DNA of 62,179 nucleotides, filler included, from Kipferlia bialata (lineage: Eukaryota): NCBI GenBank assembly GCA_003568945.1. It is 4 parts of 4 records of this genome, joined end to end, with 100 filler letters (N's around TTAATTAATTAA, not from the genome) between each part and the next. Parts side by side here need not be neighbours in the genome. Positions count along the whole stretch, not along the records: positions 1 to 18,974 come from BDIP01000448.1; 3 more parts are not named here. One strand, given 5' to 3'. This document shows, one piece after another, positions 125 through 57,248 of the stretch; the first letter of the stretch is position 1, and every line of letters begins with the position of its first letter. The position numbers and the translations under genes were made by a program. The notes beneath the pieces are model-generated. The model saw only the letters and a program-made list of their open reading frames with translations, searched no databases and was not told where the DNA came from.

Positions 125-161
<37 letters not shown>

Positions 162-168
162 ACATCAG

Positions 169-576
169 TGTGTCTGCAGCACATACCCCTTGAGCAGAGG
201 CAGCGCATCATAGACCTCCAGCTGGCTGTGGATGCCATGCCCCTGCCGCACCCAACAGGTACACATATATGTAATGTATATATATAGTGTACTGAACTAT
301 ATATACATATTATTAGCAAGGGCTGTGGATGTCATGCCTCTGCCACACCCAACAGGTATATAGGCATATACATATATAGTACTATATATGTATATATATT
401 TGTATTGATATATATAGATATCTATACATTATGTAATATATGTATGTATAATGGCTGTGGATGCCCCTGCCACACCCCACAGGTACAATATATATAGTAG
501 TCGATAGTGTACTGAATTATATATATATACATTTTAGCATGGCAGTGGATGCCCCTACCACACCCAACAGGTACAA

Positions 577-612
<36 letters not shown>

Positions 613-3600
613 GTTATATATGTGTGTATATCATGGCTGTGGATGCCATGCCCCTGCCACACCCCACAGGTATATGATATAAATATGAATATAGAGTTTG
701 TGTATACTGCATAGCTCTTTATATATACTAATATGTAATTATAATCTTGTGTGTTTGAAGTATGTGTTTACGTATTGTCAACTGGCGCTCTCAGCAGGTA
801 TCTATCTTTATGTGTTGTTCATGTTGCTAACCCTTAGGCCCCCGTAACCCTGTCATCTCTGTCATCAAGGCCATCTATGACCCTGCCAGTCCATGCTGCT
901 ACAGGGCTATCCAGGTAGATATGTATACTGTATATTGGTACATAGTATATATGTGGTATATACTCTGATATATGACCCTGCCAACCCATGCTGCTACAGA
1001 GCCATCCAGGTAGATATGTATACTGTATATTGGTACATAGTATATATGTGGTGTATATATGTGGTTGGGTGTGTATACTCTGATATATGACCCCGCCAAC
1101 CCTTGCTGCTACAGAGCCATCCAGGTATGGACTCATATGCGCATACTCTTTATATAGTATATATAATACTCTTGGCAATATAGTATTGTCAGACACAAAT
1201 GGGCCATCCATGTAGATATGTATACTGAAAATTGGTACACACATATTATTGTGTGGTGTTTGGTGTATAGAAGGACCGTTGGTCATATGATTATGGTATC
1301 CTGCAAATACTGTTGCTCACCCCAGATCGTGACCCGGGTCAGCAACAAGCTAGTCACCAAGGTATACAAGTGACTATTATTAATAATTCAATTCATTAAT
1401 ATTTTACTCAATTTAACTTAACATAATTTTTTGATGTTATATTCTACTTAGCTAGTCAGTGACTAGTAGTCACCAAGGTAGGCAAGGGGTAGTGTTTCAC
1501 CTAGACATTTATTGCTGTGTATTCTTGACATACAGAATTCACTGAATTCATTTATGTGTTCTACTTGAATATTCTGAGATTGTGGTTGTTTGTGTGGGAG
1601 GCACTCTCTAACACTGCTGGTATATTTTATTTATATTTTTTACTTTTTTCTATATTTATACTAACCCCAGATCCGCAAGCAGATGCACAAGCCTAGATCC
1701 AGCACACCAAAGTCCAAGGTCACAGCCCCTCTGGATACACCCATGACGGAGGGAGAGAGGGAGAGAGAGGGGGAGAGAGAGAGGGAGAGAGAGAGAGAGG
1801 GGGGGAAGGGTAATGAGTCACTCCTCTTCCCAGTGCTGTCTCAGACACCCCCACTTGGCACTGTGTCTCTCTCTCCACCTACAGCCAAGGGGGAGAGAGA
1901 AGCAGAGGGAGAGGGAGAGGGTTCATTCACCCCCTCCATATCTCTGGATGAGTCTCCCTCTCCAAGGAGAGAGAGAGAGAGAGAGATGCCCACCATGGAG
2001 ATCGACACTGTTGTCGTCGACTCCACTGTGCCTGTGGATGTCAAGAGGCATGGGAGAGATGTGACACAGGCTAAGGCAGAGAGAGAGGGAGAGGGGGAGA
2101 GAGAGACTGTGTCCACAGAGCCAGTTGGTGATGTTGAGATGGTCACTAGAGAGACGGCTGAGCCTGTATCCACGGGTGTAGTTACAGCAGAGGATGCTTG
2201 TGAAGATGTGTCCATGGGTAGAGAGTCTGAGGGAGAGGCCTCCACCACGCTGGATCCTAAGGATGTGTCACTCCTTGCCCTGTGGCCATCCAGTGGCAAG
2301 TGCTGCTCCAGACAGTGTCTCTCCACATACCCCATGGGAGATGGTGTGAGCGAGAGAGAGAGGTCGAGGAAGAGAGCAGACCTCATGGGCAAGCGCATGG
2401 ATATGCAGGTATCTATCTACACTCATATGTTATGTACTCATATGTTCACCTTTGCATGAATGTGGACATGAAGAGACGTATACTATCTTTCTACACCTAT
2501 ACCCTCACCCCCAGTCCCTGTCCCCCAAGGATAAGGCACATACCATTGCACAGCTCTTCATAGACAGAGAGACGGGGGATACCATTGTCTGTCCATTGGT
2601 ACGTGTGGATACACTATATACACGATATCCCTCATTGTATCCCCCTTACTACTAGTATGTAACATAGACTCTAAATTATTACTAACCTTACATACTTTCA
2701 GTTGACATCTTGAATACTCAATTTGTAACACTAGGCCGTGCAGGTGCTGTCCAAGTCTACTCAGATGGCCACCAGATCAGCACTCAAGGATGGCAAGGCG
2801 AGGTATAGCTGAGTTGTCTCCATTCTCTGTATGATATATACATATGCGTTGATATATACATATGCTTTCAGTTTCGATTATTTAGAATTATTGTACTATC
2901 TGTCTCACCTCTCTAGCTGGGCCAAGGGCACCCTGTTTGGAGGGCTGAGACTGTCCCAGACACCACCAAGCAAGGAAGAGGAAAGGGTGGAGATACCGAC
3001 TCTCAACCCTCACACCCTCAACTTTGACAAGAGGTACATTCTCTGTTTCATCTCTATTACTGTATGTCAGTACAATCTCCCTCTGACACCCAGTCTCTCT
3101 GACTCCTAGGTACCTTCTCTCTCCCTATCTATTTGTAGTTTCTCATACCCAGCCTCCCTGCCTCCCTCTCCCAGAGAGATATGCGTCCCCTGACTGCCAG
3201 GGAGAAGGGCATCCACAGGGACGTCACAGGTAGGGAATATACGTGTTAATATGTAACTATTTATGTATGGGTATGTATAGTTAGATAGGCGACGGAGAGG
3301 GTATCCACAGGAACGTCACAGGTAGGGGAATACAATACACATATATATTTATTAATAGAAGTGTTCGTGTGTACGGCCATATACTATATGTGTAATATGT
3401 ATGCACTCACCCCAGCCCTGCTGGCCACTCTGTCAGACACAGATATATATATCTACACACACGCTAATATACGTATATACCTCTATTTACACTCACACCA
3501 GCCCTGCTAGCCACCCTGTCCGATGATGAGCAGGTGGCTGTGTTCCACCAGTGGATCAGAGACGCCAGGTGGGTCCAAGTGTTTAGAAAATCAACCATAT

Positions 3601-6600
3601 TATAAATATTATATCTGCATTTAGTATCTGGAAGCTCTTACCCCAGGGCGAAGAAGAGAGAGATTGCCGGCGGTGTGTCCACTGCAGAGGCAGAGTCTGT
3701 CAAGCGCGAGATGCCTGCTGCTGCTACCAAGCCAGTCGTTGGAGGCAAGAGGGAGAGAGAGGGGGAGAGAGAGAGACCCGGTGCCAAGAGAGTACCCAAG
3801 ACCAGCGCTGGCAAGCCTACTGTCAGTAAGGCTCCTGGTGTTACCAAGTCTGCTGTTACCAAGCCTGCTTCCAGTAAGCCTTCAGTTGCCAAGCCTGTTC
3901 CAAAGGTATGATAGTTACTGCATATTCATTCAGCTACTCCACTAAAGAATCAGTATCTAAAGTATGTATATGTTGCACTATTTAATGTATATATGGATAC
4001 ATGATTCTATTTTCTTTGCGGTCTGACTCTCCAGGTCCCCTCCTTCCCCACCACGCCCTGCTGTGTGGGTAGGCGCTGTCTGATATCCTATGGCACTGAC
4101 ACTCCATCTCCCATTAGGGCTAGGACAGAGCTCATGGCATCCATCCAGCAGCACCAGCTACAGGTGGCCAGGGAGTGCAAGGGGTCAACAAGGGCGGTGA
4201 GTCATAATATATATATGTATATATATATATAGGGTATGTTAGTGTATGTATCCAGCAGCACCAGCTACAGGTGGCCAGAGAGTGCAAGGGGTCCACAAGG
4301 GTGGTATGGCATATTTGTATGTATAATACACACACACACATGTATATATATATTTATAATGTTGTATATGCATCCAGCAGCACCAGCTGCAGGTGGCCAG
4401 AGAGTGCAAGGGGTCCACAAGAGCGGTATGGCATATTTGTATATATAATACACACACACACATGTATATACATATATAATATAGTATATGCATCCAGCAG
4501 CACCAGCTACAGGTGGCCAGAGAGTGCAAGGGGTCAACAAGAGCGGTATGGCATATGTATATATAATACACACACACACATGTTTATATATATATAATAT
4601 AGTATATGCATCCAGCAGCACCAGCTACAGGTGGCCAGGGAGTGCAAGGGGTCAACAAGGGTGGTAAGTCATATACATACATATATATATATATATATTA
4701 TTCATCCACCAACTCCAGGCCAACCAGTGTCGTGCTGCTGTTATTCTAGTATTAATAGTATTGCTTAATTCNNNNNNNNNNNNNNNNNNNNNNNNNNNNN
4801 NNNNNNNNNNNNNNNNNNNNNNNNNNNNNNNNNNNNNNNNNNNNNNNNNNNNNNNNNNNNNNNNNNNNNNNNNNNNNNNNNNNNNNNNNNNNNNNNNNNN
4901 NNNNNNNNNNNNNNNNNNNNNNNNNNNNNNNNNNNNNNNNNNNNNNNNNNNNNNNNNNNNNNNNNNNNNNNNNNNNNNNNNNNNNNNNNNNNNNNNNNNN
5001 NNNNNNNNNNNNNNNNNNNNNNNNNNNNNNNNNNNNNNNNNNNNNNNNNNNNNNNNNNNNNNNNNNNNNNNNNNNNNNNNNNNNNNNNNNNNNNNNNNNN
5101 NNNNNNNNNNNNNNNNNNNNNNNNNNNNNNNNNNNNNNNNNNNNNNNNNNNNNNNNNNNNNNNNNNNNNNNNNNNNNNNNNNNNNNNNNNNNNNNNNNNN
5201 NNNNNNNNNNNNNNNNNNNNNNNNNNNNNNNNNNNNNNNNNNNNNNNNNNNNNNNNNNNNNNNNNNNNNNNNNNNNNNNNNNNNNNNNNNNNNNNNNNNN
5301 NNNNNNNNNNNNNNNNNNNNNNNNNNNNNNNNNNNNNNNNNNNNNNNNNNNNNNNNNNNNNNNNNNNNNNNNNNNNNNNNNNNNNNNNNNNNNNNNNNNN
5401 NNNNNNNNNNNNNNNNNNNNNNNNNNNNNNNNNNNNNNNNNNNNNNNNNNNNNNNNNNNNNNNNNNNNNNNNNNNNNNNNNNNNNNNNNNNNNNNNNNNN
5501 NNNNNNNNNNNNNNNNNNNNNNNNNNNNNNNNNNNNNNNNNNNNNNNNNNNNNNNNNNNNNNNNNNNNNNNNNNNNNNNNNNNNNNNNNNNNNNNNNNNN
5601 NNNNNNNNNNNNNNNNNNNNNNNNNNNNNNNNNNNNNNNNNNNNNNNNNNNNNNNNNNNNNNNNNNNNNNNNNNNNNNNNNNNNNNNNNNNNNNNNNNNN
5701 NNNNNNNNNNNNNNNNNNNNNNNNNNNNNNNNNNNNNNNNNNNNNNNNNNNNNNTTAATAGTATTGTTTATGCTATATGTATACTAAGTCTAGGCCAACC
5801 AGCGCCGTGTTGCCCTGAGAGAGGCATTCATAGAGACACACTTCGTAGACACCACTACTAGGAAACTCAAGATGTGCAACCAAGCTGTGGCCACTCTCAG
5901 TACGTGTCACATATGTGTATATATGGTACTGAAAGTTTAGTTTTTAGTTTAATTATTATTAATTCATAATTATTAACCAAGCTGTGGCCACTCTCAGTAC
6001 GTCTAGAGATGTATATGTATCTGTGGATGGCTGTCTATTCTGTGGTACACATAAGATATATAATAGTGTCTCACCCAAGTGCAGTAATCTGCCCCTGTCA
6101 TCAGTAGCCATATATATCCATATTGTATATATATAAATATATATATATATATATTATTATTATTATATAGATAGGAATAGTGTCTTTGAGAAGTCTAGTA
6201 CTTATACCTCACCCAAGTGCAATGCTCTGTCCCTGTCATCAGCAGCCAAGTATATCCATATATATATATATATACTATTACTACTATTATTAATAAATAG
6301 ACTGAATAGTGTCTTTGATAAGTATTGTACTTATGTCTCACCCAAGTGCACTGCTCTGCCCCTGTCATCAGTAGCTCTCTCCTGAGTATCAACAGGAGAG
6401 CCAAGGCCACATCCAAGACAACTGACAAGGGGAGGGAGACAGACCGCAAGAGAGAGACTCTGAAGGGCCTGCTCAGGGACCCTCTACTGGAGGAGAAGAC
6501 AGCTAAGCCTAGTGCCCCTGCTACAGCTAGCACCGTGCAGAAGAGACCTGCAGGTGCCAGGAGGGTCAAGGAGGTCCAGTCTAAGGTGGACACCAGGAGG

Positions 6601-9600
6601 AAGGGGGGTAAGGCCAGCGCTGCCAGTACTGTCAAGCCTGTCAACGTGGCCAAGGGCACTATGGGCACCAAGATTGCCCAGTCTATCTCTCTCCCTGTCC
6701 ACAAGGAGTACCCACCAGTGCAGATCACCCTGATCCCAAGGTGAGTATGCCATTGCATTCATATATATGCACTCACATTCTTCACATATGATGATAAATA
6801 TTCTCACTACAAGCTCCCCCGTTTCAGACGCCTCTGAGTCTGAGAGGTCCAAGGACATGTCACCCGCAGCAGAGAGGCTGGAACTCGACATCCAACAGGG
6901 AGAGGTCACTCGCACACAGGTATATATAGTACATATATATAGTATATAGTATATGTGTGCAGTGAGTACTGATACCCAGGATCCAGAGGACTCTGCCAGC
7001 GATGTCTCCTCTCTCCTGCCCTCCCAGGAGATACTCTCTAAGACACTGGATGTGGGAGATGCCCTTCTAGACGATGTCATGGGTGGAGAGGGAGAGAGAG
7101 AGAGAGAGGAGAGTGCCGGGGAGGGGCTTGTTGAGGCCATACCCCAGTCTGATGCTAAGGCACAGGCTGTATCTACTGTTGGTACCCCTGCCCTGCCCTC
7201 AGTGCCGCAGATGTCCCCCCCAGAGACCACCTCTAAGGGCCAGGATGCCTCCTCAGTCAGTGATGTTGTGGATCCTAATGTAGAGGGGCAGAAAGAGACT
7301 GCAGTAGAGGCTGCATCTGACGTAGCAGTGGAGGCAGAGGCCAAGGAGGCTGCTGGGGATGTCGACATGGCACCCAGTGTTGAGGCCGTACCTGCTCTGC
7401 TCTCAGTGCCACAGGTAGCCCCTGCAGAGAACACCTCCGATACTGCTGTGTGTGAGGAGGGTGTTGTCGCAGCTCCCACTGAGGTTGCAGCCACTACTAG
7501 TCCATCATCCACCACCACCCACATATTGGGTAATGGTGACAAGTACACCGGTGGCTGGATGGACTGCCTACCCAATGGCCAGGGCACCCTGTGGCACCAG
7601 GATGGCAGGAGGTACGAGGGTGCGTTTGTGGCTGGTAGTATGGACGGGTATGGGGTGTGTGTCTACCCCGGCGGTGCTCAGTACGAGGGAGAGTGGAGGA
7701 ACAGCCTCCCCAATGGGGAGGGTACACGGGTAGATCCAGCTGGTACCTACACTGGCGGGTGGAAGGACGGACTCAAGCATGGGGTCGGGAAGCATGTCAC
7801 CAGCTATGGAGGTGTGATTGAGGGAGAGTGGAAGGCCGATAAGCTACACGGACATGCCAGTATCGTGTGGCCTAGTGGGGAGAAGTATGTGGGCCAGATG
7901 GAGGAGGGCAAGTACAGTGGGTTCGGGACCTTGTCCTACCCTAACGGGTCCAGGTATGAATTCAACTGTTGGTTACATTGATATGTGTTTCAGTGTGTTG
8001 ATTTGTACTTAGTAGTCACACTGACCCCAGGTAATAGTATAATATATATTGTCATATATACTGTCCCCAGGTATGAAGGCGAGTTGTAGTTTAAGAGACA
8101 CAGTGAATGACGTGTGCAAGAGTAGATTGTATCTGTATGTCATATATCAGTGTTGCTGACCCTCAGGTATGAGGGCGAGTGGGAGTTTAAGAGACGTGTA
8201 AGAGTGGACTATATCTATATATCATATATCTACTGACCCTCAGGTATGAGGGCGAGTGGAGTTGCTGAGGGCGAGTGGAGTTGCTTGCAATTTGTATTTT
8301 GTGGTATACACATATATATATACTGACCCCAGGTATGAGGGGGAGTGGAGGGAGGACATCAGGCACGGCAAGGGTACCCGCATCAAGGCCAGTGGGAAGG
8401 GGTACACAGGGATCTGGGTGGAGGGAGAGTGTGTGACCAAGAAGCCCCTCCCCACCCAGTCATCTACCACCACTCCCACTACCACTCCTGAGGACACACC
8501 CCTCATCACACGCCACACTCTGGTTAAGACTGCAGTAGCATCTGTAAGAACTGCAACAACTGTAGGAACTGATTCTGAGCCTATCGGGCAGGAGCAGACT
8601 GCCCCTCCCATCGAGACTGTTGTGCCTACCGGACCTGCCATGTCCGTCGAGTCCGTCGGGTCCGAGGCCTCCGTCAAGGCCAGTGTGTCTGCTGGCTCTG
8701 CATCTGTGACTACTACTGAGGACGACACTCCCCTCATCACCCGCCACTCCCTCCACGGCAGAGCACCAATATCATCTACTCTCAGTGCTGTCACAGCCGT
8801 GTCAGAGGGCAGTCAGAGAGAGAGAGAGAGTAGTCCTCTGCAGACCAGCATGTCTTCCATCAGTACCATGTCTGTTCTGACCGAGGAGCAGGGAGGGGAT
8901 GTGGAGATGACCGCCAAGGCCGTCGAGGACGTCGAGGACGTCGCTCCCGTCAAGGATGACGTGTCTATGGTCGTCGAGCCAGTGACAGAGACTACGTCTG
9001 CTGTGGCCCCTGTGGACGCTGCATCCTCTGTCGTAGATACCCCTGCAGATGCCTCTATGCCTAAGCAGGTGGAGGCAACTACTGATGCATCAGAGCCTAA
9101 GCAGATCAGGGAGATAACTGCTAGCTCTGAGCAACCTAAGGGTGCAGAGGTTGCGGAACTGGTCAAGTCAGAAGAGACAGTGATGAAGGCTGAGGCCCCT
9201 GCTGCTGGGGACACTGTGATGGTTGAGACACCCCAGGAGACAGAGAGAGGGGAGGCTGCGAATGGTGTTAAGACAGAGGCCCATGCCAACACTGTAGGGG
9301 AGAGAGAGGGAGAGAGTTCTGTCAAGACAGAGGATCAGGGACAGGGACAGACAGAGGCAGAGGCTACTCCTATAGAGCCTCCTACAGAGGCAAAGGCCGA
9401 GGAGGAGGAGGAGGAGGAGGGGTCTGACTCTTACTCTTACTCTGAAGGTAATGTAGTTTCAACAATGGTCCATCTCATTCATTATCAATACTGCTACACT
9501 ATTGATATAGTATATAGTATATGTGCTTCCTATCATCTCACCCCTCCAGAGTCTGAGACCCCCTATGAGACTGCCTCGAGAGAGAGGACAGAGCTGCTCC

Positions 9601-10346
9601 AGGCATCTACCCTGCCCAGCCACAGGTATGATCATTACAAGGGCTGGAATTATTCGCCAACTTCTTATATATATTGTATATATAGTAATATACATAGCAT
9701 TTTATAGGTATCGCTGCTCCAGGCATCTACCCTGCCCAGCCACAGATATATAATTATATAGTATAATTTACTAAATAACGATTCCACTGTGAATATGTCT
9801 ATATAGAACGCCTCTTGACATCTGACCCAGGTGGATACTTGATTATGGATATTATATCCGATATATATATACAATATATATATATGTATATAGTATTCTC
9901 ACCCCAGTGGTTATATGATTAAGGATATTTTATATTATATTAGCATATATATAGTATTCTCACCCCAGGTGGAGACTGACCCTCAAGAAGGTCGACATTG
10001 AGTCTATTGCATATACTATATCCTCTCATGTATATGAATATATATATATATTATTTATATAGTACTCTGACCCCAGGTGGAGACTGACCCTCAAGAAGGT
10101 CGACGAGTACATCATCACAGTGGTAAGTCGCAACATATTCTCTATCATATGTATATACTACTCCTACTTACCCACTTTCTTCTGTATTATTTCCATATAT
10201 TGTTTCATAATTCATTATTGTATTCATGTCTCATATTCCAGGCTAGGTTAGGCCAGGACCCCTCTGTCCACTCTGAGGAGTGGACCCAGCTGGTGGCCAG
10301 GGCATTCACAGACAAGAAGACAGGGGAGCAGGATGGTGCGACTCAT

Positions 10347-10380
<34 letters not shown>

Positions 10381-10466
10381 TGAGGAGGAGAGAGAGAGAG
10401 AGTGGACCCAACTCGTGGCAAGGGCATTCACAGACAAGAAGACAGGGGAGCAAGATGGTACGACTC

Positions 10467-10519
<53 letters not shown>

Positions 10520-13500
10520 TTTAGAGAGAGAGAGAGAGAGGGGAGAGGGTGGCAAGGGCAAATACATACAAGAAGACGGGGAAGCAGGACGGTACGGCAT
10601 GCATCAGTACAGCGTTGTCTGAATGTATGTGTCTTCGTGTTTGGTTCTCACCCCCAGTACCTGACTCTGTGATTGACCAGGTCATTGCCCACTCTAGGGT
10701 CATTGGGGCCAAGCAGGTGGAGGGGATCGAGAGGGCCCAGGTGAGATTAGCTCCATATGCCTTATGACTATATGAATATGTGTGTACACATTAACTTTGA
10801 TGCATATTATACGATATGAAGAGACTCAGACCAAGCAGGTGGAGGGGATCGAGAGGGCCCAGGTATGTAATAGTATACAATCCTATTACATGTAATAATA
10901 GCGAGTATATATATACAATAGTATGGGTATGGGAGCCAAGCAGGTGGCGGGGATCGAGAAGGGTCAGGTGCGTATACAGTTCCCTATGCCTTATGAATAT
11001 GTATAGATGGATACTGTGATTTGAAGTCTTCTATGTAGTACTCACTACAGGCCGACAGGCTGCGCAGGCAGCGGGAGAGTTTCAGAATACTAATAGTATT
11101 ATCTGATCACTATACCATATATACGTGTGTTCCTGTGTCATACTTACCATAGGCCGACAGGCTGCGCAGGCAGCGGGAAAGGGAGGAGAAGGCGTCCATC
11201 CGCAAGATGGAGACTGAGAGGAAGGAGAGAGAGAGAGAGGAGCGCTCCCGTTCCTCCAGCTCATCACCTCCCAAGTCGCAGAAGGCAGCCCCGAAGGTAG
11301 GATTTATTAACATATATATGTGTGGGAGAGTGTATGTGTGTATTTTCTATGCTACTCATCGCCTCCCAAGTCGCAGAGGGCAGCGCCTAAGGTTAGTCAG
11401 GATATGAGTTAACATATGTATATGTATGTTAATATATTTAGTATGCCATTTGCTAGTGCAACTCCATAGTACTGTATAAGTATACAGTCACACTTTCTAT
11501 ACAGTGGCACTGATGTATCTTAAGATGCCATCTTTTGCGTGTCTACAGTGTACAGTAACAACGTGTGATTCACAACCACACAATTATCTCTCTTCACTCT
11601 GCGGCTATGCCACATACCCTTACACTGCATGTTGCACCACACACTATCATGGTAAGTAAGGCGCACTTCTGTCACTGTGTAATATACTCTATTGGGTGGA
11701 AAGTGAGTAGAGATGTTATGTTTGGTCTCTCTTCTTATGTATGGCCTCACCCACCAGCCCAAGGCTGCCAAGGCCCCTATATTCTGTGAGGCGATAGTTA
11801 GATGTGTTATGTGTGATCTCTTCTCTAAATGAATGTCCTCACATCATCCTTGTATGTGTCTCTTTATGTAAGTGTTGGTATATGATATATCTCTCTGTAT
11901 TTGGCTGCCCTTACATCAGCCCAAGGCTGCCAAGGCCCCCACCCCCAAGGCTTGGTCTCTCTCTCCCTATCTCTCTATATCTATCTCTCTCTCTCTTTCT
12001 CTCTGTATGTATGTCCTTACATCAGCCCAAGGCTGCCAAGGCCCCCACGCCCAAGGCCGCCACCCGTGTCATCAAGAGGATATCAAAGAGCAAGAGGAAC
12101 GCCCCAATGACACAGGTGGGGCATTAAATACAACATGTATCTATACTGTACAATTGATTTTGCATGGAATACCACATGTATATGCACTGTTCAATGAGTA
12201 GATATATATATATATGGAGTATAATTAAATAGCAAGAGGAACGCCCCAATGACTCAGGTAGGGCATGGAATACAACATGTATATGCACTGTACAATTGAT
12301 TTTGCTTCATGCTACGCGAGTAGCTATATATATATATATATATGGTGTATGAGGAAAGAGCAAGAGGAACGCCCCAATGACACAGGTAGGGCATTGAATA
12401 GCATGTATCTCTTCTTGTGAAGTCGTTTGCTATATTATTATTCTTCTGTGTGATATACTAACCCCAGGCCGAGCTCTGTCTGACTGCTGCCCTTGGACTC
12501 AACCTGGGTATGGGTATCCTGCAAACGCGTATATATATATATAGTTATAGTGTATACATATTGTATAGAGTGTGTGTGCATCAGTAGTGATATGGATGCC
12601 CTTGGACTCAACCTGGGTATGTGTTAGTGGATGTATATATATAGTTATAGTATATATAGAAGGTATATAACGTTGGTGTATCAATGATGACATGCATGCC
12701 CTTGGACTCAACCTGGGTATGTGTTAGTGGATGTATATGTATACGCTATCAGTAACTATATAGATGTATGAAGTATGATATCAGTAATGACATGCATGCC
12801 CTCGGACTCAATGTGGGTATGGGTATCATGTGTATACATGGATAGATATAGTGGATACAGTAGTAGATGCAATTAGTATACGTATGTGTACATGTACATG
12901 TACATGTACATGTACATGTACATGTATATAATATCTCTGATCCCTAGGCCTGGGCCCCAGTGCCGCTGACAAGGAGAGGGAGAGGGAGAGGGAGGCAGAG
13001 GCAGAGGCAGAGAGAGAGAGACTTGCCGAGGAGGCCGAGAGAGAGAAGGAGAGAGAGAAGAGGCTCAGGGCTGCCAAGGACAGAAAGAACAAGAAGGAGA
13101 GAGAGAAGAGAGCGGCACTCAAGCTCAGACTGGAGCAGGTGGGTGACTGAGTGTTCTCAAGTATCTATTCACTTATCCACCCATTCTACTTACTCTCTAT
13201 TGTATGTGTATATACATACTATTGTCTCACCCCCAGAAGAAGGAGGCTGACCGCCTTGCTGCCGAGCACAAGGAGAAGGAGAGGGAGAGAGAGAGACAGA
13301 AGGAGGAGAAGGAGAAGGAGAGGGAGAGGGAGAGAGAGAGACAGAAGGAGGAGAAGGAGAAGGAGAGGGAGAGAGAGAGACAGAAGGAGGAGAGAGAGAA
13401 GGAGAGAGAGAAGGAGCGGCTGCGGAAGAGGGCGGCAGACAGAGAGAGGGAGAGAGAGAGACAGAAGGAGGAGGCTGAGCGTGAGGCAGCCTCCAAGTCT

Positions 13501-14912
13501 ACGAAGAGTCCCCACCTCTCTGCATACCCCAGGGCCAAGAGATCGGCACTGGTGGCAGCAATCGCTCAGCTGGAGGTAATAATGATACATATGCTCTTCC
13601 GCTGAACCCTTTATTCTCTCCTCCCTACACCCTTTAACTGTCAGAAGTGGGCCATGGAGGCTTTCGAGGATAAGGAGCTCAGACGGACCATCGGAGTGAG
13701 GTATATATATATGTAAAAATAGCATCACTACTCCCTCTCAAGACTACCTATAGTGGGAAGACTCTCTCCCTTTTTAGAAGTTACATTTTGTATATACATG
13801 TGTACTGATGTCTCAGGAAGAGAGAGTTCATTGCCGAGTGGTTCTGTGACCCTGTGTCCTGTGACATGCTGATACCATTGGATGATGTACAGGCTCTGAT
13901 GCACTGCAGTAAGACAGGTATGCTTAAAGTTTACACATGCATATGTATGTGTATTCATATATGGACCAATATATGTATGATACCATTGGATGATGTGCAG
14001 GCACTGATGCACTGCAGTAAGACAGGTATGTATATAATAATATAAAATCTAATAGGTATATATATATATATATTTGAGGATAACAGAGTCATATAGGGAC
14101 TAACCCCAGACTCAAGTGGTGCTGTTGAGATTGTGAGATCTATTGGATATATAACTAATATAGTCTACATATTTGTGCCTAATCTGTATCTAACCCCAGT
14201 CTGCAGTGACGCCGTTGAGATTGTGAGAATACTGATAAAGCAGAGAGGGAGAAGAGATACATAGAGCATAGTGTGTGTATATATGAGGCCTAACCCCAGT
14301 CTGCAGTGATGCCGTTGAGATTGTGCGGTCCAAGGCCAAGGCTAGCAGATCATCATCATCATCATCCTCCGCTAGGGTGAAGACGAAGGAGGAGAGAGAG
14401 AGAGGGTCCGGCACCAAGAGGGAGAGAGAGAGTGCGGACAGGCAGGCACAGCTCGAGGCATTCATGGAGAAGAAGAGAGAGGTATGTATCTTTATATCCA
14501 CTATGTGATTATTGTCGTCTTGACAACTTTGATTTCTACTTATTTCTGTCTCATATGATGTTCATTATGTATCCCTCACCCCAGAAGAAGGAGAGGGAGA
14601 GGCGGGGCAAGGACTACAAGAAGGACCCCAGGTTAGTGAGCTATCATGAGTATCCGTGTGACTGTGTCGTCGTTTCTCTCTCTCTCTCTCTCTCTCTCTC
14701 AATATATATATATATGAATATATATATCTCTATGTGCAAATCTATCCCCCTAGATACAAGGCCCTGTCTGCCATGGCCTATCCCAGACACAAGTTATCTC
14801 TCTCTCTCTCTCTCTGTCTCCTATATATACGTGTATATGTATCTAACCTAGGTACAAGGCCCTCTCTGCCATGGCCTATCCCAGGCACAAGAGAGCTCTA
14901 TCTCTCTCTCTC

Positions 14913-14943
<31 letters not shown>

Positions 14944-15409
14944 GTCTATAGATATATATATATACCTAACCCTAGGTACAAGGCCCTGTCTGCCATGGCC
15001 TATCCCAGACACAAGAGAGCNNNACCCTAGGTACAAGGCCCTGTCTGCCATGGCCTATCCCAGACACAAGAGAGCTCTGTTCATGGCTGCTCACGACAAG
15101 CTGCTGGTTAGTTGGAAATATACATAGGACATACTATATATATATATAATTATATATACATTAATATATATATATATCTATATTGTGCTTCTGTTCATGG
15201 CTGCACATGACTGATTATATATAGTGGTACATATGTATCGTATGCGTGTCGGTATCTATATTTTAAATTGATTATATACACTTACCCCCAGGCTGATCTG
15301 GAGACCATGCCCACATACTGTCAGCCTGGCCAGCCACACCCAAGGTATGTGTATGTATATATATATATATATATTCGTATATGTATTAGTATGTTTATAG
15401 CGTTAAGAC

Positions 15410-15457
<48 letters not shown>

Positions 15458-15946
15458 CAATATGCTCTACTGTCACTATGTTCTCATCGTCCTTCTCTCT
15501 CTCTCTGATACCCTTTCAGTGATATGTTATTTGTCTACGGTACTTACCATAAAGGTTAGGCCCATCTCCCCTCATCACTGTCATTACATAGACATTGTTT
15601 CTTTCATATAAGTATAAGTGGGTATGTGTTCTCTCATGCGACTCCTATTCACCTGTAGGGGTGAGGCCAAGCGCCACTTCATCACGGAGTGGTTCCATGA
15701 CAAAACTACAGGAGAGAGGGTGACCAACAACAAGACGGGCATCATCCACTTCATGCACACGAGGTGAGATATTGTAGTGGTTGTTGTATACTCTATATGT
15801 TCTGTATGCGTTTACTCACCCCCAGTGTTGTCATTGTGGATGATTCTGCACAGGCAGCGACAGAGGCTGCTGAGAGGAGGGCCCGTAAGAGGGCTGGGCA
15901 CTCTAGCAGTCGGAGTCACGGCAAGGGAGCATCCCGCAGAGACTAG
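169..15946 (+). CDS. Gene A: giant multi-exon (~30 exons) protein, 5'-truncated. Contains MORN repeats, ERERE/low-complexity linkers and ~6 copies of an unnamed module
   Basis: GT-AG exons join in one continuous frame. Examples: 169-258, 838-914, 1326-1361, 1671-2408, 2515-2598, 2735-2802, 3647-3905, 5794-5899, 6347-6740, 6814-6919, 6980-7953, 8333-9447, 9550-9625, 10077-10122, 10242-10335, 10658-10740, 11154-11296, 13237-13575, 13817-13917, 14300-14481, 15031-15106, 15659-15763, 15826-15946 (…GASRRD*). The gene spans an N gap at 4772-5754, so continuity there is inferred. Confidence 0.8.
1661..1670 (+). promoter_or_regulatory. Representative branch point fused to the 3' splice site (CTAACCCCAG); motif recurs at nearly all introns in the window
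   Basis: ctcaccccag (1316), ctaaccccag (1661, 33951), ctgaccccag (8323, 10067), and the reverse complement ctggggtgag in minus-strand genes. There is no polypyrimidine tract between branch point and AG. Confidence 0.85.
4141..4670 (+). repeat. ~110-120 bp tandem array: 5 copies of an exon 3' end plus GT donor plus AT-rich spacer
   Basis: The unit atccagcagcaccagctacaggtggccag.gagtgcaaggggtc.acaag.g.ggt occurs at ~4143, 4250, 4372, 4492 and 4610. Only the first copy is part of an exon. Confidence 0.92.
4772..5754. other. Assembly gap (N run) inside an intron of gene A
   Basis: Continuous run of N. Confidence 0.99.
7520..8440 (+). other. MORN repeat array (~7-8 repeats) within gene A
   Basis: Repeated Y-x-G-x-W/F-x3-4-G-x-G units: YTGGWMDCLPNGQG, YEGAFVAGSMDGYG, YEGEWRNSLPNGEG, YTGGWKDGLKHGVG, IEGEWKADKLHGHA, YVGQMEEGKYSGFG, and after the intron YEGEWREDIRHGKG. 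Confidence 0.93.
12887..12926. repeat. Self-complementary (TGTACA)n microsatellite
   Basis: Six or more perfect palindromic hexamers just upstream of an acceptor. Confidence 0.9.
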
Positions 15947-16442
15947 AGGTACTTGGGGTACTTGGGGTTCTTCAAGATCTGAGGGTTACTGATTGTTCCA
16001 TGATAGTTTCGGCGATAGTGTGGTACTGTCGTCAGAATCCGTTCCCCCTCGATATGAGTCTGCGCCATTAGGAGTGTCCATACATAACCACCACGAGGAC
16101 ATATCTCTATCGTATGTCCGGTAGTTTGGATACTGGCTTCGAGGGTCAAGGTGTCCGTTTGGAGGGATTCCGCTCCACCTCTGTTTCTGTAATCTGTTTC
16201 GACAGCATCATGTGGTATGGTTGTTTTCACTGGCGTCATTACATTACTCAGGCATTTTTGTTATCTATTTACGAGTGGACAATAGACTTGTGCCTGTTTC
16301 ACAGCTATTCTTGTAATGTCGAATTCAATACCGGCTATAATCGAGGCACTCTATTCTATAGCGTCCTGCACACTGTCAACAGGATATATGGATACTCTAG
16401 AGAGTAGAGTCACTCTAATCTATTCCAATTCTCATATAGATT

Positions 16443-18798
16443 CTATATGGTCCTGGACACTGTCAACAGGATACTTGGAACTACCGTGAGCTGGACTACC
16501 AACCCAACTATAAGAGCCCACTCCCACACTGGGATGAGAGTCTCATTAGAAAACTGTGAGTATAAATATAGAACCAAATCTTCCAAGGAAGATGCTAGGG
16601 AATGCAAAATATACACAAATTAGAATAGGTACCTGGGAGGCTAAGAATGGGACATGGGTCGCAGAAGACCTCCATAAGAGGGTATCTGGGGTTGGATATA
16701 TAATATACTACCGTAAATGATGACACAGCGGCTGATAACATACATTGACAGATGTAGTATAGAATCCAATTAATGATTGAAACCTACCTGCATTCTTGGC
16801 CTGGGGCATTGACCACCCACAGAGTGGTATACCCCACAAACAGGAGTGGCATGATGTTTTGAAGCACCAGGCAGAGGACAAAGCCAATGTTCACAGACGC
16901 CTTAGACTCAATGTGTTGGACAACAACAGTACCACTGTCATATAGTTCTACATTGGGGATCTCTTCCACATTCGTGTCCTCCTTTCCTCTTGTGAGGGGT
17001 GTGGTATCGATAAGAGTGTCTAGAAGTACACCTCTCTGTCTGACATCTGGTGCAGTGCTATCGCTATCCTTCCTTTCCTCACTCTTACTCTCGTCTCTTG
17101 TGGATACATACGACTGTTCAGTCGTGTCTGATACCGCATCCAACTCGACAGAGAGTGGCAGTGGTTCCTCTGTACAGAGAGCCCCACTGGTTCCTTCCTC
17201 ATCTCTACCTTCACTCTCCACGGCAATACTGATAGTCTCACACCCAGCCTCAATGACTGTGGTTATGACATCTCCCCTGGTTTCCTTACCTCTCTGTCTG
17301 AGTCTGAACATAGCAAGGGTCAGCCAGTGGAAGGGTAAGAGCAGACCATAGGAGAAGGTGAAGACCCAGAGACCGGACAGGTGGACATCCTACACCATCA
17401 GGTAGGATGTGGGCGGAGAAGACATATATGCACTATGTGTTGTTTAGATACCTTCCTACCTCATGCAAGACTGTGGCTCCGAACAGAGTGAACAATAGGT
17501 CCTTGCCATCATTGATGAGACCGACAAGCATGACACCAACGGCAGCGGCCTGGGACATCAGATGGGATCATAGTAGTGACTGCATTATGGGTTGCACAAC
17601 CAGTGCGAACATACTAACTGCACCTCATAGTGCGATAGAATATTCACTAGATACATACCGACAGCTCTACTGCCTCTGCACTCAATAGAGCCAGGTGCAC
17701 ACGAGTGGATAATGGAAGCTGCTTTGAAACGGGCCGGTTGGTTTCTAGTCCCTTTACTGCAGGCAGAGCATCTAGATGGTCAAACTGACCCCCTCTCCCT
17801 GCCCCAATGGCAAGTGTCTGCATGGAAGGCAGTAAGCACCAAGGATATAGAGCAAGAAAGGCTCCACCCACTGTTGTTAGTCTCTGATACAACGTACACC
17901 ACTATCCAAAACAACAGAACAGAGACAAAGAGAGGCGACAAAGGTGTGACACCACATAACAGTATGACTTTATACTATGTCGGCCCCGTGTACTGTGCAT
18001 ATCTAGAGATAGGCAATGCACACTGCAGTGGGTCCCTGACAAATTATATACGGTAACATACATAGTGTCAATATATTCTAGGGTTAAAAGACTCTTTTGA
18101 AAAGAGTGCACCTGACATTGTGATTGAGAATATCCACCAGTGTTCCGTATTGTCTGGGTTGCCAAGAGCACTGGGTGAGGGAGTATTTGTAAGGGAATGG
18201 TACAATACGCCGATATTTACCACACTGCATCATTCCTAATCACCAGCGGCGAGGAGGAGCAATTAGATGGGAGGAGGGGGGGGACTTGTAGTGCAGATAT
18301 TGTGCATACTCAGAGCATATATGTCATCTATGCACATGTCATCGATGGTGCCAATGCCAATTGGACTATAAGGAGCAGTGAAAGGCTTAACACCAAAGAC
18401 ATAGGAGAGAACACCAGGATACCTGATGAATCCATTGGTTACAGTGTATCGTTCAGGAGCATTCTGGTGATAAGTATCCTACGAAAGGGGTGAGGGGGAA
18501 GCAGCACAGGCACCAATTAAGGAGTGCCGATATAGTAGTATTGGTTATTCTCTAGCATGAGAATAGGGCACCACTGGGTAGAATTCTCTTGGTATAACAA
18601 TACACCACATACCTCTATGTTGTAGAAGTGGATACAGGTTGAGATGCCCAGTATCATGCCTGGAGTAAAGAGTGTATATCTGTATGAGGTCCAATATATA
18701 CACATACTATACGCATTTCGAATGTATTCATTTGACTATATACATACACAGAATAGGGTGGAAGAGCTGAAGTGACGCACCTCAGCACTTCCATATGC
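16443..18798 (-). CDS. Gene B: multi-exon, multi-pass membrane hypothetical protein (5' end missing at the contig join)
   Basis: Minus-strand exons encode hydrophobic segments: MILGISTCIHFYNIE, EHWWIFSITMS, VGGAFLALYPWCLLP, AAAVGVMLVGLINDGKDLLFTLFGATVLHE, GLWVFTFSYGLLLPFHWLTLAMF, IGFVLCLVLQNIMPLLFVGYTTLWVV, IPVWEWALIVGLVVQLTVVPSILLTVSRTI*. No family recognised. Confidence 0.65.
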
Positions 18799-18974: not shown

Positions 18975-19074
18975 NNNNNNNNNNNNNNNNNNNNNNNNNN
19001 NNNNNNNNNNNNNNNNNNTTAATTAATTAANNNNNNNNNNNNNNNNNNNNNNNNNNNNNNNNNNNNNNNNNNNN
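18975..19074. other. Artificial contig-joining spacer (N44-TTAATTAATTAA-N44)
   Basis: Exactly 100 nt, with stop codons in all six frames. Identical to the spacers at 31869 and 43155. Confidence 0.97.
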
Positions 19075-19222: not shown

Positions 19223-22200
19223 CTGTCCTCTGTGAATGTGCATCTGGGACAGGAAGGAGTCTCTGAGGGTTAGAACACATCGGCCTGGTGTATTCACAAA
19301 CTAGTGTTACAATGAGCGCTCAAGTAGCCCAAAGATAGTCACTATGAGTACATTACCTCTCTTCGGGGGTTACGGTGTCTCTGAGCATCTGCTTCTCGAA
19401 GATAGCCAGAAGTGCTTCATCGGCCTTGCACTCCGCCACCACCCGATCATGCTCCTGCTGTGACTCAAGCATTGACTTGAAGGCATTGGCCTTTCTGTCG
19501 GTGAGAGCACCACGCAGGTTGTGACATAGGGCCACGTGCTCTTGACTGAGCTGCACGTCCTCGGCAAAGGTCCTTCTCTGATATAAGATATATGATATAT
19601 GATAGGTAGTCTGGGACATAATAATGTGTAAACATATCACCTGCATAAAAATGACTATACTGCCAGATATATATACCTGCATCGTCTGGGATGTAGTACT
19701 GACAGAGACAGTGCTTCTAGGGTTGACTGCACTGGCAGGTGCCGCAGTGGGCAGAGGGAGGGGTGACTGGGGTAAGAGGCTCGTGGAAACAGACATTTGT
19801 GGGAAGGTCACCCAACAATGGTGGTGTGTCACTGACCTGGGTGCTGGCAGGTGCTATGGGACCCTGGCCACTGACTGTATGGGCCCCGTCAGACACGTCT
19901 CCCCCTGGAGTGACAGCTGAAACAGAGGCAGAAGTAGCTGAGGGTGCAGAGGCACAAGCAGCTGTGGGTGCAGAGGCACAAGCAGCAGTGGGTGCAGAGG
20001 GACGTGCAGCTGTGGGTGCAGAGGCACAAGCAGCAGTGGGTGCAGAGGGACGTGCAGCAGTGGGTGCAGAGGGGGGTACGACATCAGCCGAGGCAGGGTG
20101 AGATTCCTGTGTATCGCCAGAGTGACTGTCTATACTGGAGACAAGCGTCACAGGTGCAACCTGATCCTGACATCAGACTCTCTTTCATATACACATTAGT
20201 AGTAGTACTAACGAACTATACTAAGTAGACCACGGGTCATGGGCCAAAAGACAGTGACACAGCAATACATATTTACATATATGTACCTTCGGTGCGGGAG
20301 CCGGGGCCCCGATGGACACGAAGAGCCCGTCACTGGACACTGGCATAAGAGTATACGCATTAGTGACATAATACTATTGATAATCCACACCTGATGACTT
20401 CAAGTTCTGTGCCATCCTCTCCTTGGCTGTCTTCACTGGTATCTGCAGTGGCAGACGCTTAGGGGGACCTTGGGTCACAGGTCCCTGAGGTGAGCGATCG
20501 GAAAGGACATCAGACAGTAAGAGAGGAATGAATGCTACTCACCAAGTGTCATACCCGGCGTATGAGACACACCACTGCATATTCACAAAGGAACCCCTCC
20601 AAACAAGTGTGCAAACACAAAACAAATGCTACTTTCACAAACAGCCCAATATATACTCATTATAGTACCTTGTCAGTGTTGCATGGTGCCCTTGGGCGCT
20701 TGGTGGGTCTCTGTGAGGGTGGGTCAGGCACTGACCGTGAGAACATGATATATATGTACACGGAGAGTGAACAACTACCATGAACAACAACCATGAATAG
20801 AGTGACATACCTGGGGTGGAGAGGGGGTCCCGGGCGCCAACAGTCGGGTCTCCCGTCAGTGACATCACAGCCCCATCATGGAAGCCGACTGGTGTGAGTG
20901 GGTATTGCGTACCTGGGCAAGGATACAGTATCACATATACAACACCAGTCTCCACTCACTCTGCGACTGTGTGTTCCGGGCCATATTGCGGACTGAAGCA
21001 GGAGGACGGACTTGATGTGAGAAATGTTGGCAACGTTATATAGAGTATCCGTGTACACGATGTAAAATCATTGATATGACACTAATGGCCAGAGTAGCAG
21101 GGTTGCTATACCTATTTCTCGTCGTGGCACGGTTGTGCGCTGCGGAAGGGAACCGGGGCACATGACCTGTGAGTAGCTCGAAAAGAGAACAATATCACAG
21201 GAATAATATGTATATGTGTACTATATAATTAACCCGTATTCAATGTTCCTATTATGATAAATAGAAGAAGTGAGCGATCAGACGAGCCAAAGTTATCTTG
21301 AACTACAATATAAAACGTACCCTCACAGTCTCCTTGCCGGAGTCGATACCAGACAGAGGGACAGTAGGTGGGGGCTGAGATCAGGGACTAGAAGAGATGA
21401 CAACAGGTCTGATTGAAATACAAGGCCTAGCAGTATAATGCAGAATGTGTACCACTGACCTTAACCTGGGTCCCACCGTCACTCTCCCCAAGTGCGTTAG
21501 AGACGGCCACGGAGCCTGGATAAGAGACACAAGTATTGAATCAATACTATTGATAGATATATATATATATGAGGGACCTTCTGAACAGGCAAGTATATAT
21601 AGGTAGCATATATATTTCTGAATCTCTGTGTGAGTATCTGTAGTAACGTTGAAGACTGACATACAGTAAAGTACCTGTGGACCCAGAGGGCACACCAGAG
21701 GGCAGAGATGCCGGTTGAGCCTGACGTCAGAAACTATAGAATGGCATGAGTGGGTATACTAGCACACATATGACGTTGCACAAGCCAAAATGTAACGGAA
21801 TACTAGCACTGACAGACACTGGCACACACACACACATATATATATATAAATATGTATGTATATACCTCCTGTGTCTCCTTGGGGACTATGTCTGTGGGGA
21901 CCGAAGCCCTCTCGGCAGATGGCACAGCGGATGGCACAGGGGATGGTGCAGAGGTCATGGTCACCAGGGGAGCTGTCTGGGCTGCCAGACCTAGGGTAAG
22001 GCGGGCAGCAGCAACACAGACAATACTACTGATACTGTGTTGTCGAGTCCAGAAGATTACACAAATAGTTGTGACTGACGTGGTTGTGTACCTTGGGACA
22101 TGACGTGTGTCGGTAAGAAGCCACCTGGATCAGTGAGTTGCGACACAGTGAGAGGGGTGAGGATCACATGGTGTTGTGGGATATGACACAAAGTAATATA

Positions 22201-25200
22201 TAGACACTAGTCAATACTCAATTCCCACAGCGCTTCTCTGCAATCACGTCATTCTCGTTTAATGAATTGACAGAGACAATGTAAGTATCACAGTTCATAT
22301 ACAACATACCTTCTGCACCTGGCTGACGCTGCCTGGGGAAGTACTCAGTGAGTTGCGCCTGCTATTGTGAGACACACCTATTCAATATATATTACAATCA
22401 TTGAATATGACAGAGCCAAGTAGAGTGGCAGGGGAGACGGTATAGAGTCAGCATGAGTCCCGGCATAGTATCATACGGTGGAACATATCATATGGACATA
22501 TTGTGCTGGGACTGACTCTACCTTCGTGTCCCTTGTCAGCAGGGTCTCGGCAATGGGGCCGAGGACAGAGACGACTGGGTGATCCTGGAGTCAGCCACCA
22601 AAGACTCAAGAGAGGGACGATAATAGGGTAGAACTGCAATATATAATACTACAGCGAGTAGGAAGAGAAGAACCCTCACCTTAAGGTCACTAGCGTCAGA
22701 AACGCCCTGGAGTGATACGAAGACCTGTTGGAGCACTGTAAGGGTCGACCCCTCTGTCCTGCTGTTAGAGATATGAGAAATCAGCCAAGAGAAGGAATAT
22801 ATACTTGAAGATTGGCAGTGTATTACACCAACGATATTTATCAAGTCGAGTGCCTCGAACAGACACAACTTGTAAACCCCTGATGCAATACATACATGCA
22901 ATACTACACTAAGTGCCATATCTCTATACATCTACCAGCCCCTACTCATGCACATGTGGTACCTCTCAGCCTCGGCCCAGGACAGGACCAGGCCGGGATC
23001 GAGGCTGGCACGGCTGTCCAGGTGGGTCTTGACCTAGAATGAATGGAAGAGACTGATGCCATAACACCTTAATACCAGACGGCAATGCAAGCCTGCTTTG
23101 TCAAATCCTATCATCAATACCTTGTCAAAATAGCACACAACCAGGCACACAAGGAACCGGCGCCGGAATCCTGTCATAAAGCCCTCAATTCTACTGGTGT
23201 GAGGAGCTGCATACAGTGTGGGTGGTATGTTCGTCTAAAAGTGTGTGTGTGTGATAGGAGTCAGCATCTGGTACCTCATGTGTAGCTGTGTGTTCTGGCT
23301 CGCCTCAGCTGCTAGGGCTGCATCATTGTGCTCATCGATACATGCTGTGTCAGATGAAATAGGGTCATACAAAAGACAGATGGCGGAACATAGAAATATA
23401 CGGGGTATCTGAAGTTCAACAAACAGTGTAACGGGCTATGATACACCTTTGATGTCGAGACTACTGTGCGCCAAGAACTTGGTCCTCTCAGACCCGTCTA
23501 GCAGGAGACTCTCCAAATACTGGCTTGTCAAATGGGGTTCTATGGAGGGTATAGAACACATAGTAATTACAAGATGTGTAAAGCCGAAGACAACAGGATC
23601 AGTACCTCGCAAGAAGCGCACTTTGTGAGGGAGAAGGTCACTGTCCCCTCCAGTCTCTTCACCTGTCGATGAGAGTATGTCATATATACATAGGATAGAT
23701 ATATAGAGGTGAGGAGTCATGCCTCAACGGCAACATATATGGATGTACCTTCTCAATGAGAGACTTCTCGGCGTCTCTTGCCTTAATCAAAGGCCTGGAA
23801 CACGCCTCAGCCTCTTGTAGCTGCTCCTTCAGCCACGGCTAGCGTTAGGGTTGCATATATATATATATATATACACTTAGGCTCATTCCAACTCTGGGGT
23901 GTGAGGTTACAAAATGAGTACAGATACTATCACTGACAACAATATAGAGAACAGTTACTATATTTCATAACTAAAACAGTCAGTGATACATCTTACCTCC
24001 AGGGTACAGTGCTGCCCTGGCCTGTCTCCACACATGGGGCAGGCATGCTTGGCTCTGCCTACCAAAAACCTCAGGATGTCAACGGCCTGGGTCATGAGAA
24101 GAGTGGCAGTTATGGCGGGGTCATTAGTGGAAGTGGACTTCATCTCATACATAGAACATGTATATACAAAGCAACCCATAGGCACATAGCTTACCTCTGC
24201 CATCTCAGAGACCAGGCTGTCCACCTCTTCCTCCCCGACAGAGGCATGAGAATCAGTCTCAACGCCACCCCCTTGGATGAGGGGCCTCACCTCCTGGGCA
24301 AGGTGGAGCACATGGTGATGCTGCTCAGTGATGGATCTGACGCAGTCACATACACCGGACACCCATTTACTCCTACTCGTTAGTAGACATGGGCTCAAAG
24401 ATGACTATAATATTAAATATGCCTAAGGGTTAGGAACCACAAGTAAAGTGTGACACTACTCAATGCATTACTGGCCATATATCATGGCTGCCTATATAGT
24501 ATATAGTATATAGTGTTGATGACATGTCAAGTGGGTACCTATCCTTGGCTGCATCGACACCCATTCTAAGCCTCTTGATACGCTCAGTGTAGCCTGATAT
24601 GTCGTCGTCTGGCCGGTGTCGCCCTAGAGTGAGAGACACCTCGGTTACGTAAGGTATATTGAGTATAAGGAGACACAACATTCACATACCGTGCCATAAG
24701 GACAGTGTGTCTAACACAGACAAGTACTGGCCGGCCTGGTTGAGCTCCAGCTGAGTGAGAAGGTACGTCAACGATACACTGTTACAAACACAGACGGGAC
24801 AGTACTGCTACAGAACAATACATCCCAAGGCCAAAATTATGAAGAGACGCTACCCGTACCTTCTTCGTTTCACTCTGGTGCTCAAGGAAGTCGCCTGGCT
24901 TGACGTCGTCCTCATACAGGGCAGCCACTGAGACCTATCATGAGAACAGGAAAATCACAAGAGTCAACACCTATCAAAGACACACGCCAACAACTGGATA
25001 GTCTGGATACCTTGTCGAACCGGAACTTGGTGTCAATATCAGTTAGTGCTACATCGAGAAAGGGGAGCACACGAACAAGGAAGGAGTCTAGTGCTGTCTG
25101 CATGTTAAAAATGTGGAAACAGGATACACACACATACACATACGTTCTAATATATAGTAACGCCGGGTCATATAGAGTATACCACAATATGTGAATACGT

Positions 25201-31868: not shown

Positions 31869-31968
31869 NNNNNNNNNNNNNNNNNNNNNNNNNNNNNNNN
31901 NNNNNNNNNNNNTTAATTAATTAANNNNNNNNNNNNNNNNNNNNNNNNNNNNNNNNNNNNNNNNNNNN
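31869..31968. other. Artificial contig-joining spacer
   Basis: N44-TTAATTAATTAA-N44, flanked by poly-G tracts. Confidence 0.97.
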
Positions 31969-40166: not shown

Positions 40167-40210
<44 letters not shown>

Positions 40211-40740: not shown

Positions 40741-40772
<32 letters not shown>

Positions 40773-40870
40773 GCATTCCCAGACATGTCGATGGAGACAA
40801 GCTGGNNNNNNNNNNNGAGAGAGAGAGGCATTCCCAGACATGTCGATGGAGACAAGCTGGTGTTAAGGGT

Positions 40871-40910
<40 letters not shown>

Positions 40911-57208: not shown

Positions 57209-57248
<40 letters not shown>

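Follow-up and report, generated by a model that had tools for sequence, protein, structure and literature searches.

Why should introns be crowded with partial copies of the exon edges that flank them, splice sites included, and from where could such copies have come? The question is raised by a 62,179-nucleotide (nt) stretch of DNA (hereafter, the window) from the free-living fornicate protist Kipferlia bialata (assembly GCA_003568945.1), which comprises four pieces joined end to end and gives our results a regional scope. An original prediction, made from the sequence alone, had described the copies as serial repeats of exon ends, and each of the 18 positions that it quoted indeed carries one. 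What it missed is the most informative feature of these copies (termed echoes here), namely their synonymous bias and their independent splice signals: echoes differ from the working exon edges mostly at silent positions, which points to other alleles of the same gene, reached by recombination, as their likely source.

Exon-edge copies and their removal by splicing

Gene models were made with a small gene finder trained on RNA-supported exons, followed by hand curation, and comprise 9 genes (A–H and J) with 154 introns. In this intron-rich eukaryote, exons have 51–61% GC and introns 35–42%; most donors read GTA, and the AG is preceded within a few bases by a YTNAY branch point, an arrangement resembling the fused branch point and acceptor described in diplomonads (PMC6679479). 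Taking the first donor and the last acceptor yields open frames in all models except that of gene D (partial 5′ end), and in two genes single exons are 100% identical to the deposited K. bialata proteins KIPB_002630 and KIPB_002624. The gene E model equals KIPB_002624 at 1176/1176 residues spanning its 13 echo-bearing introns, a match that is only partly independent, as the published gene set, of which we assume this protein to be a member, was predicted with transcript hints (PMC5874029). The gene J model has one false intron (60268–60458) relative to the deposited protein; it is included in the 154 and holds no echo. Three of these genes are as follows:

169–15946, plus strand: gene A, 33 exons, a 2103-amino-acid open frame from the outermost splice sites, MORN repeats; echoes in 16/32 introns
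19223–31798, minus strand: gene C, 59 exons, 1615 amino acids, same splice signals; echoes in 0/58 introns; internal control
34203–42940, minus strand: gene E, LRR, cysteine-rich, membrane protein; echoes in 13/26 introns

When the flanking exons were aligned locally with their introns, 107 matches resulted, six of which were dropped (five adjoining N gaps and one chance match in gene C). The remaining 101 echoes (58 donor-side and 43 acceptor-side) form 63 families (35 single, 21 double, 4 triple and 3 quadruple) in 47 of the 154 modelled introns. Their exon part measures 16–58 nt (median 31) at a mean identity of 93%, the spacer has a median of 73 nt, and the period has a median of about 107 nt (interquartile range 96–122). 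That echoes are centred on junctions and follow gene orientation, as predicted, is borne out: 91/101 extend to within 2 nt of the junction, a search in inverted orientation gave 1 match, non-adjacent exons gave 3 matches in 1540 queries (0.6 per round), and exons of at least 110 nt (87 queries) gave 32 junction-side versus 2 far-side matches. In introns that combine the two types, the donor copies always lie on the 5′ side of the acceptor copies (15/15). The copies retain the splice dinucleotide in most cases (GT or GC in 49/58 donor echoes, AG in 36/43 acceptor echoes), and their motif score equals or exceeds that of the true site in 37/58 and 22/43, respectively; selection destroying decoy sites is not evident (7/77 lost GT/AG; P = 0.26). 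Decay is visible as 4 stops and 16 indels, 14 of which are not multiples of three.

Echoes lengthen introns, as had been proposed (median 356 nt with echoes versus 98 nt without), and in genes A and D–H 56% of intron bases lie outside the innermost donor–acceptor pair. The further proposal that they build introns does not hold, given that they lie inside existing introns and that their sites are skipped where tested. Their spread is uneven: echoes occur in 46/84 introns of genes A and D–H versus 0/58 of gene C (P = 3e-14), and in 0/3 introns of gene B and 1/9 of gene J. An architecture common to several genes is thus upheld for A and D–H, reaches J in a single intron and is absent from C and B, and the supposed genome-wide process reduces to a regional pattern. 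The gene C region, where (TA)n runs are fewer and one intron (20340–20390) measures 51 nt, may be a low-recombination domain.

To what extent the arrays exist in the genome and are spliced out can be judged from read-derived contigs of two runs (X1 and X2, one sample), compared over 160–6900. The X1 DNA contigs 179–570, 632–938, 928–1033, 1023–1742 and 2114–3744 show 0 differences from the window at a depth of 333–453 (that is, single-copy depth), X1 possibly being the very data behind this assembly; 4210–5559 is uncovered in both runs, and X1 support does not extend to the four-donor-echo array there. X2 was taken to be RNA, as GT..AG joints are present in its contig and absent from X1. Its spliced contig (4463 nt) joins 3229 to 3502, 4196 to 5794 and 5899 to 6347, thereby skipping 2, 5 and 3 echoes, respectively, and supports junctions within 2114–6900; first donor and last acceptor are used in 3/3 echo introns. 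The gene A echoes within the compared region are:

321–672, plus strand: donor echoes of exon 169–258 at 321, 452, about 541 and 634 (X1 contigs 179–570 and 632–938)
968–1240, plus strand: donor echoes of exon 838–914 at 968 and 1083, with the short remnant of a third near 1201 (X1 contigs)
3230–3501, plus strand: intron with donor echo 3294 and acceptor echo 3416; whole intron removed in RNA
4197–5793, plus strand: intron with donor echoes 4250, 4368, 4488 and 4606 and acceptor echo 4719; whole intron removed in RNA; 983-N gap inside
5900–6346, plus strand: intron with donor echo 5975 and acceptor echoes 6080 and 6218; whole intron removed in RNA

Assembly stutter, which the original prediction had named as its own possible undoing, could be suspected at three identical pairs that flank N gaps and that are probably assembly doublings. 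In one of these, 14969–15020 and 15024–15075 are identical across a 3-N gap, and thus one copy is probably a doubling and the predicted acceptor copy at 14965, part of a set of upstream copies that are otherwise present, may be the true acceptor; 40762–40860 and 52943–53125 are likewise doubtful. For the arrays as a whole we regard stutter as scarcely credible: the copies average 93% identity with codon-patterned differences, and several arrays are held at single-copy depth by read-derived contigs.

Substitutions and splice signals in the copies

Differences between echo and exon (n = 215) fall at codon positions 1, 2 and 3 in 25, 40 and 150 cases, and 134 are synonymous versus 81 nonsynonymous, where neutrality would make 27% synonymous. 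The corresponding per-site ratio of nonsynonymous to synonymous differences (pN/pS) is 0.19 (family bootstrap 0.13–0.27); it is robust to end trimming and is 0.15 for gene E alone and 0.18 with one echo per family; 55/328 fourfold sites and 25/644 second positions differ (P = 7e-4 versus 0.5). Wrong reading frames give 3.5 and 1.8 and the bias is gone. In the three RNA-verified introns the synonymous-to-nonsynonymous split is 14:11, and differences between echoes are synonymous-rich even where the echoes have flanks in common (22 versus 14; neutral 27%). AT-ward decay does not account for the third-position excess (33 strong-to-weak versus 32 weak-to-strong changes). We infer that a neutral self-copy lying beside a drifting exon would have a pN/pS floor of about 0.5; the observed value lies below this floor, and most differences would therefore have arisen while both versions were coding.

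The intron-derived parts of the echoes point the same way. Likeness between the intron flank of an echo and that of its exon is no better than that of random intron pairs in 75/100 cases and exceeds their 95th percentile in 25/100, and 15/21 near-identical echoes, including identical ones of 31–47 nt, have an unrelated flank. YTNAY together with AG is present in 29/35 acceptor echoes (true sites 137/154; background AG 192/1156) and is kept by 23/27 of those that differ at two or more of 10 positions; in 7 acceptor echoes the register of the branch point is shifted, and retention of the signal departs from neutral decay (P = 3e-4 to 4e-3). At acceptor positions −12 to −3, echoes differ from the used acceptor at 20–69%; donor positions +3 to +6 differ in 29–62%, and +1 and +2 in 5–10%. 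An apparent absence of branch-core changes (0/46) is circular by construction and was not used. To judge from these patterns, an echo resembles a junction that once functioned in a diverged allele and is now decaying.

Echoes outside the region compared with reads, together with a related copy at a coding boundary, are as follows:

8167–11951, plus strand: other gene A acceptor echoes (8167, 8244, 9969, 11051, 11758 and 11920) and donor echoes (9713, 10400, 10548, 10831, 10925 and 11355)
12217–12811, plus strand: donor echoes 12217 and 12355 (exon ending 12115) and 12597, 12688 and 12788 (exon ending 12507)
13978–15211, plus strand: donor echoes 13978 and 15190; acceptor echoes 14115, 14200, 14755 and 14852
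16353–16386 versus 16440–16473, minus strand: end of the gene B coding sequence (final codons with the stop) echoed in the 3′ flank (a coding boundary, not a splice site)
32178–33893, plus strand: gene D, donor echo 32178 and acceptor echoes 33558, 33666, 33772 and 33867
43731–47093, plus strand: echoes in genes F (5/8 introns) and G (2/2 introns)
49031–54496, plus strand: gene H (weak SET-domain match), echoes in 8/12 modelled introns and two acceptor echoes 5′ of the first modelled exon
57245–57343, plus strand: gene J, two donor echoes, both 5′ of the portion that is deposited

Gene E (minus strand) has two GC–AG introns, at 42313 and 41884 (GCAAGT and GCAAGA); the intron at 42313 uses a GC donor, as the deposited protein confirms, and the echo of this donor, at 42198, has GT. 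In the MORN repeat region of gene A, the intron at 7954–8332 has CAG|GTATGA at either end and several acceptor echoes start with GTATGA, which makes it a candidate case of recursive splicing or of an intron that arose through duplication of AGGT. Recursive splicing was also considered for the echoes at large; by eye, just some acceptor-echo exons begin with GT. In-frame repeats are present within exons at 19923–20073 and 13270–13470 (a 24-nt unit and KERERE-type units), and many (GA)n tracts translate as ER repeats. The N44-TTAATTAATTAA-N44 linkers at 18975–19074, 31869–31968 and 43155–43254, flanked by poly-G/poly-C read ends, are piece joins without biology.

Possible origins of the echoes

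We suggest, with about even confidence, that the echoes were acquired through recombination between diverged alleles of one gene, starting from homology within the exon and leaving without homology in the intron, a scenario read from sequence patterns. The steps would follow the general scheme of one-sided invasion. A break would occur inside the exon, 16–58 nt from its edge, and one end would pair with the homologous exon of another allele and copy past the junction about 60–110 nt into its intron; pairing would start in the exon because only exons are still alike between alleles. The copied strand would rejoin the other end through a few bases of microhomology, often a TA, GA or ATACTG repeat. 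The incoming junction would stay on the exon body and function, and the resident junction would be displaced into the intron as an echo. Unequal exchange and conversion among exon edge and echoes would later multiply and mix the copies, which could explain the one distal boundary common to the copies in 15/28 arrays and the four-gamete violations in 2/7 arrays with at least three echoes (including that in intron 4197–5793), a test with few informative sites. Purging would remove copies that lie within the exon or cover all of it, leaving donor echoes downstream and acceptor echoes upstream. Echoes could persist if the spliceosome takes the donor and acceptor touching the GC-rich exon body, as it does in the three introns covered by RNA; an exon-definition-like rule would then govern the choice of splice sites. 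In the same evenly balanced judgement, introns would be stacks of junctions captured from other alleles, and such recombination would supply more than half of the intron sequence in the affected genes.

Several observations accord with these steps. Repeat-type microhomology lies at the distal boundary in 13/63 families versus 2.8 expected; a recurrent ATACTG/CAGTAT hexamer repeat is also seen in introns, frequently at echo boundaries (41340–41630 and 50560–50580). Metamonads are reported to lack Ku/DNA-PK end joining, and fornicates to lack Rad51A and to have two Dmc1 genes (PMC8516963, at group level), and Dmc1 stabilizes mismatched base triplets (PMC6719624); the reported fornicate repair kit is compatible with capture.

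Other points weigh against allele capture. It requires allelic introns to be nearly unalignable at a silent divergence of about 0.15. X1 and X2 hold no other letters at 92% likeness over 160–6900 (that is, no second allele, haplotype or paralogue), and the donors would therefore be past alleles. Scanning metagenomes for relatives of gene E yielded 195 pattern matches, none of which was confirmed, and no relative; a protein search at near length with an exon of this gene gave nothing. The age gradient predicted by outward displacement is unseen, pN being flat with distance from the exon (0.032, 0.040 and 0.023), and neither the flank likeness of distal versus proximal echoes (P = 0.074) nor the synonymous share by flank class (P = 0.13) is significant; a proximal versus distal synonymous split of 56:24 versus 35:35 (P = 0.019) may stem from the ends of the alignments and carries no weight here. 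The common distal boundary in 15/28 arrays implies that most copies descend from one founding event, the 25/100 homologous flanks are what simple tandem duplication would give, and splice choice beyond 2114–6900 and gene E is based on models.

In a rival reading that we consider rather unlikely, ordinary self tandem duplication of about 100 nt (by slippage or template switching at intronic microsatellites) was followed by allelic gene conversion, which replaced the working junction or the echo and imported synonymous differences and foreign intron starts; diverged alleles are still needed. Shared distal boundaries, homologous spacers in several arrays (for example, 4250–4663) and boundaries at microsatellites speak for it, as does the coverage by (TA)4+ runs (5.7% for echo introns, 2.1% for gene C). 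However, duplicates confined to introns or intergenic DNA are scarce. When segments of the observed period were placed on gene C, 17% were intron-only and 47.5% junction-spanning, and random tandem duplication with selection should give about 23 intron-only families for every 63 at junctions; we observed 3 in the 13.1 kb of introns that lack echoes (2 in gene C and 1 in 49 other introns) and 0 duplicates in 4.0 kb of intergenic DNA, which also bears on the refuting condition named in the original prediction, that junction copies be no commoner than random local duplications. The low-complexity filter biases this test against AT-rich repeats, and together with fast intron turnover could conceal some duplicates; within echo introns, 36 non-coding repeats are mostly spacer-to-spacer matches by eye. 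Taken jointly, the two allele-based readings (capture at birth, and self-duplication with allelic conversion) are probable.

Three readings that need no diverged alleles fare less well. A classical minisatellite of the amphioxus 'mirage' type, in which junction-spanning copies are selected and AT-rich spacers decay faster, would share layout and similar unit size with those arrays (PMC3087553), and the stop-codon echo of gene B shows survival at a non-splice boundary. We nevertheless give it little chance, as pN/pS is under the 0.5 floor, identical 31–47-nt echoes have unrelated flanks, acceptors are diverged yet intact and no exon part is longer than 58 nt where 32% of cases should be, a shortfall for which selection could account; whole-unit homology, as in minisatellites, is confined to some arrays (for example, 4250–4545). 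Equally improbable is a staggered break at the junction whose fill-in gives a long target duplication with newly made AT-rich filler: such a break-repair model is published (PMC3443670) and the spacers are unrelated and rich in microsatellites, but copies should match exactly in GT or branch-AG at birth, here they differ while functional, the synonymous bias is left unexplained and canonical non-homologous end joining (NHEJ) is reported absent in metamonads (PMC8516963). The synonymous bias, retained dinucleotides and high motif scores could also reflect selection of echoes in place, as minor translated exons or splicing elements, and contigs cannot reveal rare isoforms; this, too, we find hard to credit, as 0/101 echoes have a good partner site that would give an in-frame, stop-free exon, periods show no frame preference (35/29/37), stops and frameshifts are present and the RNA contig skips the echoes.

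Implications and relation to known systems

If allele capture is true, a single protist genome would be enough to gauge outcrossing and past diversity (silent divergence near 0.15) by way of its echoes; one clonal genome would record past allelic diversity and genetic exchange in a free-living fornicate, and intron growth would be tied to the unusual repair kit reported for fornicates (Dmc1 only, no Ku). The same reaction could then underlie amphioxus mirages, giving them a testable origin. Whatever the origin, a short-intron protist skips decoys that score as well as real sites and picks the pair closest across the exon. For short introns an intron-definition rule is usually assumed, of which this choice is the opposite. 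In practice echoes are a trap for gene finders, and our unconstrained gene-finder model made many of them into false exons.

Echoes match their own exon only (as in the non-adjacent-exon control) and random intron pairs score about 0, which does not fit introners or transposon-derived introns. Tandem cassette or mutually exclusive exons, where every copy would possess acceptor, donor and open frame, do not fit either (0/101). In the Rogers model of intron gain by tandem genomic duplication, as outlined in PMC3443670, local duplication also copies splice-like sequence, but an exonic AGGT is duplicated and the new sites are used, whereas in Kipferlia existing junctions are copied together with intron sequence and the new sites are skipped. 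Staggered-break intron gain in Daphnia likewise brackets unrelated AT-rich sequence with direct repeats; the Daphnia repeats, ascribed to NHEJ, are short and border newly gained introns, whereas the Kipferlia copies are 16–58 nt plus a splice signal inside old introns (PMC3443670). One-sided invasion or aborted synthesis-dependent strand annealing, with microhomology joining, resembles the proposed capture in having homology at one end, none at the other and a templated duplication (PMC4888836); we found no paper that applies it to splice-junction copies, and its action in Kipferlia is our proposal.

The original prediction knew of no described system with this architecture, yet the mirages of amphioxus, known in Adh3, the globins BflGb6 and BflGb9, PGBD5 and troponin C, have the same layout (PMC3087553, PMC3902484; accessible text). 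Both consist of head-to-tail copies of exon–intron boundaries within the intron, 5′ and 3′ boundaries alike; most mirage units (60–160 bp in globins and PGBD5) keep AG/GT and leave normal splicing undisturbed, and echoes, too, span boundaries in gene orientation, copy donors and acceptors and leave splicing intact (3/3 introns and the gene E protein, rare isoforms being invisible in contigs). By contrast, mirages are reported in a few animal genes, whereas in this protist echoes occupy about half of all introns in six genes; BflGb6 units are 81–100% identical and the intron part of Kipferlia echoes is mostly unrelated; and echoes are synonymous-biased, a term ('synonymous') absent from the accessible text of PMC3087553, which calls the origin of mirages unclear. 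No report of echoes in Kipferlia was found in a search of the openly accessible literature, and 'duplicat' has 0 matches in the K. bialata genome paper. Density, a protist host and the allelic signature, none of which we found in print, are thus what Kipferlia adds to a layout already known from mirages.

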